Positions 2,887 to 12,082 of a stretch of DNA of 64,000 bases are shown here, piece after piece (positions within the stretch are counted from its first letter, which is position 1; each line of letters begins with the position of its first letter). The DNA is from a virus (lineage: Duplodnaviria > Caudoviricetes). The position numbers were made by a program, and so were the translations under genes. The DNA lies in IMG/VR virus record IMGVR_UViG_3300011268_000751, positions 1 to 64,000 of that record. The stretch is one strand, 5' to 3'. The notes beneath the pieces were generated by a model. That model saw only the letters and a program-made list of their open reading frames with translations. It searched no databases and was not told the DNA's origin.

Positions 2887-3062
2887 TCCTCACTCCAGTA
2901 GTATCTCAGTTTATCACCATCAGCAGAGATATTCAGGTGATAGATTTTATCATCATCAGTATAAACACCAATCCAGAGTGTCCTTTCATTCATACTTTCC
3001 AGATGAAACATTTGAATGTCTTGAAGGACAATCTCATCAGGATTTTCAGCAAATCTACTCAT
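2877..3062 (-). CDS. hypothetical phage protein
   Basis: 61-aa ORF, ATGA overlap. Confidence 0.75.
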   Translation of the reverse strand: MSRFAENPDEIVLQDIQMFHLESMNERTLWIGVYTDDDKIYHLNISADGDKLRYYWSEETP

Positions 3063-3337
3063 CGAAAACTCTTCAATACTCTACGAAGAAACTGAATAGA
3101 GTTATAAAACTCTTCACCATCTTGTCCTCCAATCACAATCCAATCAAGTTCTTCTAATGCAAGTTGAATTCTTTCTTGGTCTGTGAGGTCTTTGAATTCT
3201 TTGTTTGCAAGTTCTTGTCGTTCTGCTGCATCCATAACCTTATGATAATCTTCTTCAGATACTTTTGCTACGATTGCGTTTGCTTCTTCTCTTTGTTTTG
3301 CGATTTCAAGGATTTCTTCGTAAGTAAAGTCATTCAT
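3059..3337 (-). CDS. hypothetical phage protein
   Basis: Likely start MNDFTYEE at 3337, overlapping the upstream stop. Confidence 0.75.
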   Translation of the reverse strand: MNDFTYEEILEIAKQREEANAIVAKVSEEDYHKVMDAAERQELANKEFKDLTDQERIQLALEELDWIVIGGQDGEEFYNSIQFLRRVLKSFR

Positions 3338-6863: not shown

Positions 6864-7150
6864 TACGCGAAAACCTTATAGAGGATGTAGATGGCAACCA
6901 AGGCAAGAGCGATCGGCCAGAATGTAACCACAAGGTAGATAAACAATCCGATTGCACCTAGAGCAACCATTCCATCACTACCACCAGATGAGGAAGAACT
7001 CTCATTCACCTGACGCAGATTGATGACCTGTTCTGCACCATAAATGCGCTCCAGTTGTTCCCGAGCACCATGAGAAGTGTTCGATTGAACCTCAAGATCC
7101 TGATAACCGTTTGCGGAACCCAACCAGCATTTAGCAGTCCAACGTGCCAT
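6863..7150 (-). CDS. hypothetical protein with C-terminal transmembrane segment
   Basis: Soluble N-domain, Ser/Gly linker, hydrophobic C-terminus. Confidence 0.8.
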   Translation of the reverse strand: MARWTAKCWLGSANGYQDLEVQSNTSHGAREQLERIYGAEQVINLRQVNESSSSSGGSDGMVALGAIGLFIYLVVTFWPIALALVAIYILYKVFA

Positions 7151-7161
7151 TTGTAATTACC

Positions 7162-7302
7162 TCAGAATTTAGCGTTGACACCGACAACTTTTGCCTTAGG
7201 ATTGCGAGCAAGAGCAGTCTCACGGGCATCCTTAGGACTGGTTGCCTGAACTTCCTCGTTGAAAACCTTACCTCCAACGTAAAGTTGAACCACGAACTTC
7301 AT
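7162..7302 (-). CDS. small conserved phage protein (46 aa)
   Basis: Manual translation MKFVVQLYVGGKVFNEEVQATSPKDARETALARNPKAKVVGVNAKF; AAGGAG RBS upstream. Confidence 0.8.
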   Translation of the reverse strand: MKFVVQLYVGGKVFNEEVQATSPKDARETALARNPKAKVVGVNAKF

Positions 7303-7326
7303 TAGAAATCTCCTTGTGTGTTGAGT

Positions 7327-7362
7327 AGTTTAGCAGAAAAATCAGCGTTTGACAACGCTGAT
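7327..7362 (-). promoter_or_regulatory. early promoter TTGTCA-17-TAAACT with a 9-bp hairpin over the -35 box
   Basis: ATCAGCGTT-tgac-AACGCTGAT inverted repeat at 7341-7362; overlaps the helicase stop. Confidence 0.6.
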
Positions 7363-8568
7363 GGCGGGTTGACCTTGCTGGAACACAAGATCCACAACCG
7401 CTTGCACCTTCTTAGCGGTGCTGATGCCCACAGAAGAGTAGACAGGGATGCAGACCAACCCGAATGCCTTAGTGTAGTCCTGAAGGGCACCAGGGGCGAT
7501 CCTGCCGCTGCTGAGCGCCGCTGCGTCCTCCTTGTGCAGACGGATCACGCGCCCGATGGTCTGAGAGATGCCGATGTAGTCCATCGAGCGCATAAACAGC
7601 ACCGCCTCCAGACCAGAAACGTTGATACCCTCAGAGAGAATGCTGTGGTGAAGCACAACGAATTTCTTGTCGTTGTCCTTACCCCAGGCAGAGAGAGTAT
7701 CAAAGAACACCTCACGATTCACTTTCTTACCATCGATCACGGCACCAGTCTTGGAAGTGATATACATCCAAGAGTAACCACGATCCTCCAGTTGAGTGCA
7801 GAAATCAGTCTGAGAAACCAGAGCGGTGATCTGCTTAGTTGCTTTGGAGCAGATCAGCACCTTGCCAACTTCCTGAGCGTCGATAGTGGCAATCAGGTTC
7901 TCACAGTCAACATCGGCAACGATTTGACCCTTGCCGAGCATCTCAAACTGCTGCACCACAACCTTAGGAGGAACGATGAAACCACCTTCCACCAGTTCAG
8001 GAGCAGGCACGCTGCAGATGACCTGTCCGTAGACAGAACCATCGTTCATCCCAGGTTTGGAAACAGTAGCAGAATGCTTAGGAGTAGCAGTGAAGAAATA
8101 GCAGCGGTCAGCAGTAGCAGCGAAGTGCTCCGTAGCAGGGAAAAAGTTACGCTGAACGGAATTGTGCGCTTCATCGAAGTAAATGGTGTTGACGTGAATA
8201 TCTGCCTGCTGAAGACGTTGCAGGGAGTTGTAGGTCGTGAAGATCAGTTTGTTGCCACGAGTTTGATCGACCCAGTTACGGATCTCATTCGGGCGAGTCG
8301 TGCTTTGGTGATGCGTTTCACCACTATGAACGTGCAGAACACTAGCGTTCGTGATGAACTCAAGATACTCAGAAGAGAGTTGCTCTGCCAGCAGAATGCG
8401 AGGAGCAACAACTACGATAGTTTGAGAATTCTCTTTGAGAAACTCACGCATCGCATCAAAGATACCGACGTTGGTTTTACCACCGCCAGTAGGAATAATG
8501 ACCTGACCTTTCAGGTGCTTGGCAAGAGCATCCAGAGCACGCTGTTGATGGGGGCGAAGTTGGATCAC
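7342..8568 (-). CDS. SF2 DEAD/DEAH-box helicase (type III restriction Res-like)
   Basis: Q-motif LRPHQ, Walker A PTGGGKT, Walker B FDEAH, TATP, LSEGIN, QTIGRVIR; GTG start at 8568 downstream of a promoter. Confidence 0.9.
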   Translation of the reverse strand: MIQLRPHQQRALDALAKHLKGQVIIPTGGGKTNVGIFDAMREFLKENSQTIVVVAPRILLAEQLSSEYLEFITNASVLHVHSGETHHQSTTRPNEIRNWVDQTRGNKLIFTTYNSLQRLQQADIHVNTIYFDEAHNSVQRNFFPATEHFAATADRCYFFTATPKHSATVSKPGMNDGSVYGQVICSVPAPELVEGGFIVPPKVVVQQFEMLGKGQIVADVDCENLIATIDAQEVGKVLICSKATKQITALVSQTDFCTQLEDRGYSWMYITSKTGAVIDGKKVNREVFFDTLSAWGKDNDKKFVVLHHSILSEGINVSGLEAVLFMRSMDYIGISQTIGRVIRLHKEDAAALSSGRIAPGALQDYTKAFGLVCIPVYSSVGISTAKKVQAVVDLVFQQGQPAISVVKR

Positions 8569-8589
8569 TGGTGAATTGCGTATGAGACT

Positions 8590-8646
8590 ATTATACGGCA
8601 AAAAGCACCCCCGCAAGGGTGCCTTGTGCCAGTTTGGGAACTGGTC
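8590..8646 (-). promoter_or_regulatory. PeSL-like early promoter with two hairpins
   Basis: Minus-strand TATAAT at 8590-8595, GCACCC/GGGTGC hairpin, AACTGGCAC motif, CCAGTT/AACTGG hairpin. Confidence 0.75.
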
Positions 8647-9046
8647 AGAAGAATTGCTCTAATCCTACTGGTTCTCCAAAGGAATAATCATACTCTAGAG
8701 CATCAGCGCAAACGTAGTGGGGATGAGACGGGGGAACACCAAGTCTAGCACAGAGTTCCTTGTGATTGTCCTCCATCATCTCAATAGCATAGAGCATATG
8801 ATTGAGAATATGTTCTTCTGTATGATATCGTAACAATCTATTTTTTAATCCAACAAGAAAATTACCAGATCCAGCAGAATTATCAATAAATGTGCTATTC
8901 GGATCTTGCAATATATCCAATGAAATGTCATCAATCATTTTCTCAACGAGTTCTTGTGGAGTAAAAACTTCTTGAGTTTCTTTTATCCTTTCGTCTGATC
9001 TTTCAATCTCAGATCCAGTTTCAAGATTGTGTTTGTTCTTTTTCAT
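8645..9046 (-). CDS. N6-adenine DNA methyltransferase N-terminal half (AdoMet-binding; lacks NPPY)
   Basis: Motif X EVFTP, motif I FIDNSAGSGNFL, motif II LYAIEM, motif III ADAL; ends before the catalytic motif. Confidence 0.8.
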   Translation of the reverse strand: MKKNKHNLETGSEIERSDERIKETQEVFTPQELVEKMIDDISLDILQDPNSTFIDNSAGSGNFLVGLKNRLLRYHTEEHILNHMLYAIEMMEDNHKELCARLGVPPSHPHYVCADALEYDYSFGEPVGLEQFF

Positions 9047-9776
9047 TTAAACACTCCATATAAGTTGCAATAAGATCGTTTTTTCCAAAATGAGCTCGCC
9101 CATTACAACCTAGTGCAACTTCACGAAATCTCGGAGCAAACTTCACAAGATTTTGTATTACCTCAGGATCCCTTACTTTTAAAAAATGATGTCCCTTTGC
9201 ATAATGGGTGAAGTTTTCAGTTTTAACCCTCCCACTTGGACCACATCCATATTCACCCACAAAAACATCTGCTTCAAATCTCCTCTCGTAGGGGAGAAAT
9301 TCAAAATCTGGATGTGTGTTCAACAGTTTTACTTTTTTTCGTGGAGTATGAGTTTTTACCCAACGCTGATATACGGCACTAATTCCTCCAGGAAAAGTTT
9401 TAGGGTCCAAATCATAATCTTCAATGACATCCAGATCAAGACGAATCTTGTTCAAGGAAGAAGGTTTCCTAACAGAAGTTGGAAGGACAAATCGAATATC
9501 ATCAGTCAGTTCTGCAGTTTTATTCAAAAATTTAATAGCAAGATTTCCACCAACTCCATATGGTGGATTCCCAATTCCTATAGTGAATCGCATTTTTTCT
9601 TTAATAAGGTTATCATAATCTTCTACTAAGTTTATTTTATCACTAATCTGCTTAATTGCATAGAAGTGTGTAGGGTCATCTTCCCAAACCCAAATGTTTT
9701 CTGGATTCCAACCCATTTTAATTGATACTAAAGAGTGAAGTCCAGTTGGATCTCCACAAATCAAAAGATTTTGCAT
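9021..9776 (-). CDS. DNA amino-methyltransferase catalytic/TRD part (NPPY; degenerate motif I)
   Basis: GNPPY motif IV followed by AIKFLNK and FVLP; ICGDPTG in place of motif I; ATG at 9776 (track start 9788 is TTG). Confidence 0.8.
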   Translation of the reverse strand: MQNLLICGDPTGLHSLVSIKMGWNPENIWVWEDDPTHFYAIKQISDKINLVEDYDNLIKEKMRFTIGIGNPPYGVGGNLAIKFLNKTAELTDDIRFVLPTSVRKPSSLNKIRLDLDVIEDYDLDPKTFPGGISAVYQRWVKTHTPRKKVKLLNTHPDFEFLPYERRFEADVFVGEYGCGPSGRVKTENFTHYAKGHHFLKVRDPEVIQNLVKFAPRFREVALGCNGRAHFGKNDLIATYMECLNEKEQTQS

Positions 9777-9777
9777 T

Positions 9778-11934
9778 TCAAACCCCAATAAGCAATTTAG
9801 TTACCAAGTCTACATTCATAGACTTCTGAGATTGGCGAGTGCAGGTCAGTTTCTCAAGTGTCCCACACTCATCCTCCTTCATCCTATGTTGAAAATCGAT
9901 GGAAACTTGATTAATTCGATAAGTCATGGTTTGAGAGTTAAGGTAATTTTGAGTCACAAGATTTTCCAAAACACCCTCAGTATCCAGTGTATCATGAACA
10001 TAATGCTCAGAATTGATAATTGAGTGGATGCTATTTGGGATTTTGTTGTCTCGAATACAATGAAAGATTACAAGAGGGATTCTTTCGATAATTGCTTTGA
10101 TTGTTTCCACCTTTTTAGCAGTCTCTTTATCCGACGCTTCTTTTTCAAGATCATCCAAAAAGATCATTTTCTTGTTACTTTTACCATTCGCAGGGTTGTC
10201 ATTAACAACTTTCTTTGTATTTTTAGACTTAGATGCAGTGAAATCCAAACCAATCTCAAGGTTCTTCAGATCTTCAAGATTCAAAGAAGAAACGATGCTG
10301 GAAAGGAAGCGAACACTATCCCCCACATCAGAGGAAAGAATTTCTACAAGTTGTTCTTGAGTCATTTCAGTGAATGCTTCTGCCCATTCAGTGAGAGCAG
10401 CAAAATCTTGCATCACATAATCCACAAGACGAGGATCGTTATCACAAGCAGCAGCAAAAGCTTTCCTAAGTGATGAAAGGCAACGCTCTGGGCAAAAATC
10501 AATTACATCCCAATCTCGATCAGAAGATCCACCACGGAAAGCAAACTGAGACCAGAAGTTCATGGATTCACCTTCAGAACAATTGATAACAGTATCAATT
10601 TCCCTAATTGTAACGCCAAGAACATTTGCCTTAACAGTAAGGATGATAGTTCCTTCGGGGTGATCAGCAATATGCTTTTTAATAGCATCAGCATCCCTGT
10701 CAGTGTCACCAGTAACAACCAAAGGTGCAAAATCTGTTGCCTCCAGATAAGGAACAGAATTATGACACGCTACAACAGAGGGAAGAGTCATGAAAATATG
10801 CTTGGCATTTTTCAACAAACGATCTTGAGGACGTAGGTGACGCTGCCTTCCGAAATAATCAACGTAAAAACCACGAACCAAAGAAGGTTCAATAAATTTC
10901 TCATCCTCATTAACTGAGAAAAGATTCTTCATTGCATCAGGATCATCACCATACACTTTTTTGTAACCATCACAATCATACTTCACAAGAATAACTCGCA
11001 TCTTGGGAGCTTTGATAATTCCCAACTTTGCATCAAGTTGCTCTTCAAAATAAGAGTAGATGAATCGATTGTTAGTTGAAAATTCATCTACGATGTCATA
11101 TGCAGTTCCAGTCACATAAAGAGTGCGACAGTTGAACTTTTTACGCATGGATTTCCACTGAGTAGATCCATACCCAACATGTGCTTCATCGTAGATCATG
11201 AAATCTACTTTACAATCGATCTTTTTCCAGCGGTTTTCACCTTGAATCGTTGTCCACAGAATAATTTGTTTATCTGTGCTCATCCAATATTCAAGTTGTT
11301 CCTTCCAGTTCTTATCAGCAAGATTGATGAAAGTCAGGTTATCAAAGTCAGCATATTGCTTCAAATCATCTCTCCAAGATTGAATCGGAGAAGTATAACG
11401 AGAAACAATCAAAGTTACCTTATATCCTTTCTCAAGAACATGATAAAGCGACATAATAGATTTGCCAGAACGGCACTTTGCAAACAGAAGAAATTCCTTC
11501 CAACTTTCCCAAGTAGAATTAATCTTTTCAAGAAATTCCTTCTGATGCTTACGCAGTTTCAGACGTGGTTTTTCTTCAGTTTTTTCTACAAAAAACTTCT
11601 CATGAATCATGTCAATGATGATATCAGTAGAAAGAGGAGAAGTTGCAAGAATTTCAAAACTCTCCCTCCCCTTCTGAATGACCCCAGGAAGTTTATTTAC
11701 AAATTCATGAAGAATATCGTCATGATGGTCATCTCTATCAGACCTAGTGGAAACATTGTTCCACCTCTGAAGGAGCAAATACTCATCATTATTGGCAGCA
11801 AGAAGTTGCTTTGCTTTACCATAATCACTCCCTTTCCTAGGAATTCCATGAGTTGCCATCATGCATGGACCCTTGGTTTCACCAATACCAAACCAATTGG
11901 GATTACTTTTGAGAGTGATGAAGTAGATGTTCAC
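9778..11934 (-). CDS. putative GIY-YIG/T5orf172-like nuclease fused to SF2 helicase (restriction subunit-like)
   Basis: N-terminal IYFI...IGET...DD..H....RESF pattern; LRKHQ, AKCRSGKS, YDEAH, VTGT, QFAFRG helicase motifs. Confidence 0.75.
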   Translation of the reverse strand: MNIYFITLKSNPNWFGIGETKGPCMMATHGIPRKGSDYGKAKQLLAANNDEYLLLQRWNNVSTRSDRDDHHDDILHEFVNKLPGVIQKGRESFEILATSPLSTDIIIDMIHEKFFVEKTEEKPRLKLRKHQKEFLEKINSTWESWKEFLLFAKCRSGKSIMSLYHVLEKGYKVTLIVSRYTSPIQSWRDDLKQYADFDNLTFINLADKNWKEQLEYWMSTDKQIILWTTIQGENRWKKIDCKVDFMIYDEAHVGYGSTQWKSMRKKFNCRTLYVTGTAYDIVDEFSTNNRFIYSYFEEQLDAKLGIIKAPKMRVILVKYDCDGYKKVYGDDPDAMKNLFSVNEDEKFIEPSLVRGFYVDYFGRQRHLRPQDRLLKNAKHIFMTLPSVVACHNSVPYLEATDFAPLVVTGDTDRDADAIKKHIADHPEGTIILTVKANVLGVTIREIDTVINCSEGESMNFWSQFAFRGGSSDRDWDVIDFCPERCLSSLRKAFAAACDNDPRLVDYVMQDFAALTEWAEAFTEMTQEQLVEILSSDVGDSVRFLSSIVSSLNLEDLKNLEIGLDFTASKSKNTKKVVNDNPANGKSNKKMIFLDDLEKEASDKETAKKVETIKAIIERIPLVIFHCIRDNKIPNSIHSIINSEHYVHDTLDTEGVLENLVTQNYLNSQTMTYRINQVSIDFQHRMKEDECGTLEKLTCTRQSQKSMNVDLVTKLLIGV

Positions 11935-12041: not shown

Positions 12042-12082
12042 ATTCTACTGATATTTGAGGATTATGTCAAGTATCAGTAGAA
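12042..12082 (-). promoter_or_regulatory. promoter TTGACA-17-TAGAAT within an 11-bp inverted repeat
   Basis: Boxes at 12065-12070 and 12042-12047; TTCTACTGATA...TATCAGTAGAA. Confidence 0.7.

Follow-up and report, generated by a model that had tools for sequence, protein, structure and literature searches.

The locus analysed here raises the question whether two overlapping phage genes, each of which carries part of the motif set of an adenine methyltransferase, encode the two subunits of a single enzyme. The genes lie in a 64,000-nucleotide stretch of viral DNA (hereafter the window) from a marine, T4-like cyanomyovirus, whose nearest cultured relatives are the Prochlorococcus phages P-SSM2 and P-SSM5 (~69% DNA identity across the methyltransferase stretch). 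All features given below are on the minus strand, where four genes follow each other head to tail: a 718-aa SF2/ResIII helicase-like gene (9778..11934; PHROG 22930), the 251-aa large ORF (9021..9776; PHROG 5172), the 133-aa small ORF (8645..9046; PHROG 4376) and a GC-richer gene for a 424-aa SF2 helicase (7342..8616). The first three overlap one another, and the sequence reads as a 26-nt overlap between the end of the large ORF and the start of the small ORF in the +1 frame (9021..9046). Upstream of the 718-aa helicase gene lies a promoter-like site, TTGACA-17-TAGAAT (12042..12070), identified by its consensus match only (11 of 12 positions). Directly after the stop of the small ORF, a GC-rich hairpin followed by a U-run (8598..8626) is a likely terminator (-23.3 kcal/mol over 66 nt, z -2.25). 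Because of the overlaps, the upstream promoter-like site and the downstream hairpin, we read the three genes as one operon that is led by the SF2 helicase and closed by the methyltransferase gene pair. A Shine-Dalgarno sequence before the small ORF was not conserved (17 of 82 loci).

Gamma-class N6-adenine DNA methyltransferases such as M.TaqI, M.BseCI and CamA (Pfam PF02384 and PF07669) carry their motifs in the order X-I-II-III-IV..TRD. The sequence-only reading of the window had assigned motifs X, I, II and III to the 133-aa ORF, with a stop before motif IV, and coordinates, motifs and a partial Pfam match all agree with this assignment. In alignment A3, motif X (EVFTP, aa 26-30; 8957..8971) contains an invariant T29 and nearly invariant E26 and F28, and motif I (DNSAGSGNFL, aa 55-64; DNSAGSGNF at 8858..8884) contains the invariant glycines G59 and G61; LYAIEMMEDN (II) and VCADAL (III) follow. 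N6_Mtase (PF02384) matched with an E-value of 3.7e-4 and a score of 20.4 bits, which equals the cut-off, and the match covers only profile positions 21-88 of 311. PHROG 4376 matched with an E-value of 1.6e-71, and identity to the N-lobes of complete gamma enzymes was 43-44% (44% for the N-lobe of P0079). Motifs IV-VIII and a target recognition domain (TRD) are absent from this apparently stand-alone AdoMet-binding lobe, motif IV because the protein ends nine residues after YDYSFG. Reading YDYSFGEP as a decayed motif IV strand was ruled out, since complete gamma homologues have FDYWGG at this place, before a separate MKFDVVVGNPPY. Conservation of the small ORF extends far beyond chance: IMG/VR contains 338 relatives, and a library of 1.8 billion proteins contains 978 cluster representatives. 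Most cluster representatives are free-standing, shorter than 200 aa and devoid of NPPY, and some (P0003-P0028) carry unrelated C-terminal extensions.

The upstream 251-aa ORF had been described as carrying NPPY and the TRD, and both were recovered. It probably starts at the ATG at 9776 (MQNLLICGDP..), as in its relatives, with a TTG at 9788 also open. Motif IV (NPPY, aa 70-73; 9558..9569 by sequence reading) is invariant among 46 aligned homologues. PHROG 5172 matched with an E-value of 5.8e-63; Pfam Eco57I (PF07669) reached 17.7 bits, below its cut-off of 25.3, and the relatives P0057 and P0188 carry an Eco57I domain. N6_N4_Mtase (PF01555) did not match either ORF at E-values up to 1, and a sequence search of the PDB gave no significant match for either of them. 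The AlphaFold model of the large ORF (pLDDT 79) was aligned by VIA-align with residues 40-412 of M.TaqI, TRD included (Z 11.8, 222 residues, rmsd 4.1), and with M.BseCI (Z 11.0), suggesting that it contains the catalytic half, motifs IV-VIII, and a TaqI-like recognition domain. The same model comprises a complete seven-strand class-I methyltransferase domain from residue 1, and KsgA, TrmN and METTL5 were matched with Z 11-13.

The first 62 residues of the large ORF (9591..9776) are predicted to fold into a Rossmann lobe of the order beta1-alphaA-beta2-alphaB-beta3. Motif X is absent from this N-lobe and its motif I is non-canonical (ICGDPTGLH). The earlier description of a decayed motif I captured the departure from the consensus but was too strong in its wording, because GDPxGxH is conserved in 7 of 7 aligned N-extended sequences (the window and six related IMG/VR loci) and the lobe evolves with a dN/dS of 0.29. 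Compared with 0.10 for the rest of the large ORF, this is purifying selection that is three times looser. The same seven sequences share the signature (I/V)xGDPxGxH...ENIWVWED...VED, in which the acidic residues of motifs II and III (WVWED, VEDY) are retained, and similar N-lobes occur in the ACG-2014f isolate C24 and in S-CAM7 gp056. The N-lobe of the window's large ORF is conserved and selected, not debris. Its complete predicted fold, the retained acidic residues, the selection acting on it and a motif-X-like helix at the end of the upstream helicase indicate that the large ORF might bind AdoMet alone. The N-extension is missing in ~70 short-form relatives, yet their NPPY is invariant.

These short forms, which are the majority of the relatives, show where the enzyme was divided. 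Their large ORFs begin with M[KR]F..IGNPPYG and have no AdoMet lobe at all, and this start corresponds to an internal methionine of the complete homologues. An exhaustive library search returned complete single-chain homologues (P0079, P0096 and P0188-190) that read ..CADALKFDYWGG-MKFDVVVGNPPY.., and across the III/IV boundary complete gamma homologues read ..ADALKFDYWGG-MKFDVVVGNPPY... The small ORF ends with ..CADALEYDYSFG and nine further residues (..ADALEYDYSFG plus 9 aa). Taken together, the starts of the short forms, the end of the small ORF and the complete homologues indicate a gamma enzyme that was cut at III/IV with a swap of the gene order. Judged by these aligned boundaries, the pair is a gamma-class enzyme cut exactly between motifs III and IV.

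Beta-class amino-methyltransferases, including M.MboIIA, M.RsrI, M.PvuII, CcrM and EcoP15I Mod, have the order IV...TRD...X-I-II-III. The halves in the window had been called order-inverted. It is correct that the IV-TRD gene precedes the X-III gene, but with the catalytic gene first this is the normal beta-class order. Fused proteins with the beta order IV-TRD-X-I-III occur in the Aeromonas phages Aeh1 (Aeh1p090), Ah1 and phiAS5 and in P0033-38, P0057 and P0115. The split form with the large gene first is found in cyanophages, in Klebsiella phage PKO111 and in the loci L101 and L107-109. L105 has the small gene first, and in L113 (2002-3939) a single gene for the small AdoMet lobe precedes two NPPY/TRD genes (267 and 255 aa), so that the split exists in both gene orders. 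L111 and P0079 represent the canonical single chain. For the fused protein P0033 of Ah1, the AlphaFold model (pLDDT 86, pTM 0.83) was matched by VIA-align to beta-class amino-methyltransferases in all of its top 11 hits (MboIIA, TTHA0409, BceJIV, CcrM, EcoP15I Mod, Mbo45V Mod, HpyAVI, RsrI, PvuII and others; Z 8.3-10.4) over residues 1-~400, whereas gamma enzymes aligned with residues 1-~250 only. In this model the N-terminal NPPY strand starts a Rossmann domain that the C-terminal X-III lobe is predicted to complete, and by homology the free small protein should complete the domain in trans. Ah1 (L097, L101) additionally contains a split paralogue, with a 628-aa NPPF protein and a 170-aa small protein, beside its fused 415-aa enzyme.

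Co-occurrence across phage genomes had been proposed as a check of the heterodimer idea. Adjacency was counted in the best 80 of the 338 IMG/VR relatives and in six further N-extended loci. The PHROG 5172 NPPY gene lies directly upstream of the small ORF at 79 of the 80 loci, the 80th being at a contig edge, and the small gene lies directly downstream in all six N-extended loci, so that it directly follows the NPPY gene in 85 of 85 assessable IMG/VR loci. The large and small genes are also adjacent in the phages P-SSM2, S-CAM7 and S-SKS1, and S-CAM7 has two complete sets, in each of which a separate small gene is present. Strong purifying selection acts on the large and on the small gene, with a dN/dS of ~0.1 (0.086-0.12 for the small ORF and 0.087 for the short-form large ORF, with dS saturated in both cases). 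The overlap between large and small gene measures 4, 8, 14, 17, 20 or 26 nt among relatives, and S-CAM7 has an ATGA overlap with a different frame relation; this variation excludes an assembly artefact and a conserved frameshift site. A frameshift or assembly error as the origin of the two ORFs was ruled out, since two ORFs with varied overlaps, including the ATGA of S-CAM7, are present in 85 independent loci.

The distribution of small partners bears on what they contribute. Six lineages with a PHROG 5172 enzyme (rV5, phAPEC8-like, GAP32, KIL3, XbC2 and VpB-34) belong to phage groups without a match among those listed in the small-ORF search, and all of them have a canonical motif X of the YYTN type and a motif I of the EPSAGxGxF type. 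The partners of the small ORF or domain, in turn, nearly all lack the N-lobe or have an N-lobe that shows neither a canonical glycine loop nor a motif X in cis; the one exception seen was the fused protein P0002 with its canonical motif I. Every phage species in which an enzyme of the PHROG 3689 type was found has the small gene as well. The presence of canonical motifs X and I in the lineages without small partner supports complementation. P0002 and Synechococcus phage MA10, in which an apparently complete gamma enzyme is combined with a small domain or gene, indicate that the small module may do more than fill a gap.

Several other explanations have to be weighed against a two-subunit enzyme. 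Rather unlikely is that the window's large ORF is self-sufficient by means of its own N-lobe, perhaps with a motif X provided by the C-terminus of the helicase, and that the small protein is an accessory. It could then offer a second AdoMet site, act as assembly or activating partner, or associate with another NPPY protein; the tandem-domain enzyme RsmC and Trm112, which acts on methyltransferase partners, are parallels for such accessory roles. The predicted Rossmann fold that is complete from residue 1 would fit this explanation, as would the conservation of GDPxGxH, WVWED and VED at the dN/dS given above, the small gene still present beside the single chain of MA10 (helicase, X-like helix, N-lobe and NPPY), and P0002 as a canonical gamma enzyme fused to the small domain. 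On the other hand, the small gene is kept in every lineage with such an N-lobe, usually overlapping the large one, and the lineages with canonical motifs X and I are without the small gene among the matches listed. The N-lobe also evolves at three times the rate of the remaining protein, and ~70 close relatives deleted it with NPPY still invariant. That the small protein is an independent AdoMet-binding decoy, sensor or anti-defence factor, unrelated to its NPPY neighbour, is improbable. Most cluster representatives being free-standing, below 200 aa and without NPPY, and the unrelated C-terminal extensions of some, would be compatible with it, but the extended forms with unrelated tails also sit directly after NPPY genes (L115, L116). 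Adjacency in 85 of 85 loci, the exact cut at III/IV and the repeated origin of fusions to NPPY proteins point in the same direction, and half a Rossmann sheet would probably not be stable by itself. The regulator or decoy role that the sequence-only reading had offered as alternative to the heterodimer is thereby weakened.

A single polypeptide in beta order, similar to Aeh1p090, would result if ribosomes underwent a programmed +1 frameshift within the overlap (..GAA AAA GAA..), and the A-rich run there, the +1 frame of the small ORF and the known fused homologues could be taken as signs of it. We consider this very improbable, because length and sequence of the overlap vary among relatives, the ATGA overlap of S-CAM7 has another frame relation, the small ORF always has its own ATG and no conserved slippery site was seen in the overlaps of relatives. 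It is hardly credible that the pair is the functionless, decaying remnant of a disrupted methyltransferase gene. The non-canonical motif I of the large ORF and the truncated small ORF might give this impression, but the explanation fails on the selection analysis, with a dN/dS of ~0.1 in both genes at saturated dS; the catalytic and cofactor motifs are all invariant across sequences that are 65-85% identical, and the pair is present on hundreds of independent contigs.

We therefore favour, as the likely explanation, that the two proteins together form, as its subunits, a single N6-adenine DNA methyltransferase that goes back to a gamma-class enzyme similar to M.TaqI and Eco57I. The canonical lobe for AdoMet binding (motifs X, I, II and III) would come from the 133-aa protein, and the 251-aa protein would contribute the NPPY strand for catalysis, motifs V-VIII and the domain that recognises DNA. 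In the short-form relatives, the beta1-beta3 sheet of the small protein would pack against the NPPY strand of its large partner, which would complete one Rossmann domain and place AdoMet beside the flipped adenine. In the window the pair is presumably translationally coupled and the large subunit would additionally retain its diverged N-lobe, which the small protein may replace, supplement or partner. We infer that the proteins associate physically, that the small one binds AdoMet, that the complex methylates adenine to m6A and that it accommodates the extra N-lobe. The proposed heterodimer is well supported for the family and probable for the window. Of the original idea of a split methyltransferase, the two-subunit interpretation was strengthened by the 85 of 85 adjacency, the III/IV cut, fusions in both orders, the beta topology of the fused model and the canonical motifs X and I of phages without a small partner. 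The idea that each half supplies what the other lacks applies cleanly to the short-form relatives, and is weaker for the window, whose large ORF has its conserved N-lobe. We regard the pair as a genuine two-gene methyltransferase that is strongly conserved and uncharacterised, with putative m6A activity.

Relative to known gamma-class enzymes, the pair resembles them in the 43-44% identity of the small ORF to their N-lobes and in a large ORF that contains NPPY and whose model aligns to M.TaqI and M.BseCI. It differs in that the motifs are distributed over two polypeptides with swapped gene order, and in a large chain without motif X, in which GDPxG takes the place of a motif I of the DPxxGxG type. 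With the beta class it shares the gene order, and the model of fused P0033 is colinear with beta enzymes, whereas the pair has no PF01555 match and the sequences of its halves resemble the gamma class. In contrast to the two chains seen here, a beta-class enzyme consists of a single chain and forms dimers (PMC7544214). Natural two-polypeptide methyltransferases are documented among the C5-cytosine enzymes, the only split methyltransferases that our literature search retrieved: M.AquI is cut in the variable region, and the smaller polypeptide of M.EcoHK31I holds only motif IX (PMC3404938). In both of them, as in the phage pair, one catalytic domain is assembled from two side-by-side gene products. 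The phage pair is distinguished as an amino-methyltransferase that is cut between cofactor lobe and catalytic strand, in permuted order and with subunits that appear exchangeable. Measured against the M.AquI type, the large proteins of the short-form relatives clearly lack essential motifs; in the window the small ORF lacks them, and the large ORF is without motif X and canonical motif I but has its predicted N-lobe.

At about even chances, the family represents a modular amino-methyltransferase of phages, in which an exchangeable AdoMet subunit serves one to several NPPY/TRD subunits and in which every step of the gamma-to-beta permutation is preserved. Sharing of subunits is also a property of Type I enzymes, but here the cut would pass through the catalytic domain itself. 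If this is true, the permutation steps are kept as living genes, as single chain, as split in either order and as re-fused protein. As a two-subunit enzyme, the pair would be the first known amino (N6-adenine) DNA methyltransferase from nature in which the division separates cofactor lobe and catalytic strand. The literature search, which had REBASE outside its scope, found no paper describing this split, although such a paper may exist. Circular permutation between methyltransferase classes has long been debated (PMC3320104, PMC7544214), with duplication (Jeltsch 1999) and fission-fusion as models, as summarised in PMC3320104. The forms seen in this single phage family, namely single-chain gamma enzymes, splits in both orders and fused beta-order proteins, fit both models, from which such intermediates would be expected. 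Whereas these models were argued mainly from fused enzymes, the separate-gene intermediates found here are extant and abundant. The analysis also offers names for two conserved 'hypothetical' cyanophage genes (T4-GC 33 and 34 in P-SSM2) and may yield a writer of m6A that is split by nature, a counterpart of the engineered split C5 enzymes for targeted methylation. In four of the six N-extended loci (L091, L092, L095 and L096), the helicase and the main large ORF are separated by a further NPPY gene in tandem, which carries the same N-lobe (~170-460 and 3000-3290 in the loci), giving two catalytic/TRD genes per small gene.

The coupling to an SF2 helicase points to an uncharacterised phage module for DNA modification or with restriction-like function. 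The 718-aa helicase gene, in which ResIII (PF04851) was detected with an E-value of 1.5e-8, overlaps the large ORF, and PHROG 22930 helicases always accompany the N-extended large ORF. At its C-terminus (9778-9830), just before the start of the large ORF, the protein has a motif-X-like helix, SMNVDLVTKLL, which reads SMPVELV..LL in relatives. In MA10, helicase, X-like helix, N-lobe and NPPY are united in one 1074-aa protein with the small gene downstream, which suggests that a fusion of helicase and methyltransferase was split between motifs X and I. Joining of helicase and large ORF by a +1 frameshift was ruled out because the junctions vary among relatives (GTGA, TGATG, TAATG); such variation fits translational coupling but not a conserved shift. 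Type ISP enzymes (LlaGI, LlaBIII) and Type IIG enzymes similar to Eco57I likewise couple an SF2 helicase-like part to a gamma methyltransferase and TRD, but the phage operon differs from them in its extra free AdoMet-lobe protein and in the lack of a nuclease domain detectable by Pfam. For the N- and C-terminal parts of the helicase, no nuclease domain was matched, and Pfam searches with these parts and with PHROG 7683 gave nothing significant, only a faint Mrr_cat (E 0.12). In L115 (342-2471), a 709-aa protein consists of a PHROG 7683-like N-terminal domain and a helicase like the 424-aa one of the window, and its gene precedes an NPPY gene and a gene for the small domain. The PHROG 7683-like domain contains a D...QVK motif reminiscent of PD-(D/E)xK nucleases, and the arrangement hints at a restriction-like module.

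The ACG-2014f isolate Syn7803C24 (L010, 3489-4502) has the order small gene, helicase and a 337-aa large ORF, in which part of the recognition domain is repeated at the C-terminus (a second HPDFEF...GK..T block). Other ACG-2014f isolates carry at the same place a cassette of PHROG 7683, PHROG 3689 and a helicase. The region of the 424-aa helicase is the GC-richest of the window (~50% at 7001-8000 and ~45% at 8001-9000, compared with ~36% around it). Among the 80 best IMG/VR loci, 76 encode a homologue of this helicase downstream of the small gene, and the other four lie on contigs that break off within ~2 kb of that gene. The TTG at 8616 that is listed as the start of this gene falls within the terminator hairpin, with a TATAAT located behind the hairpin. 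Translation probably begins at a more internal position, such as ..VIQLRPHQQ, and transcription probably from a promoter of the gene's own.
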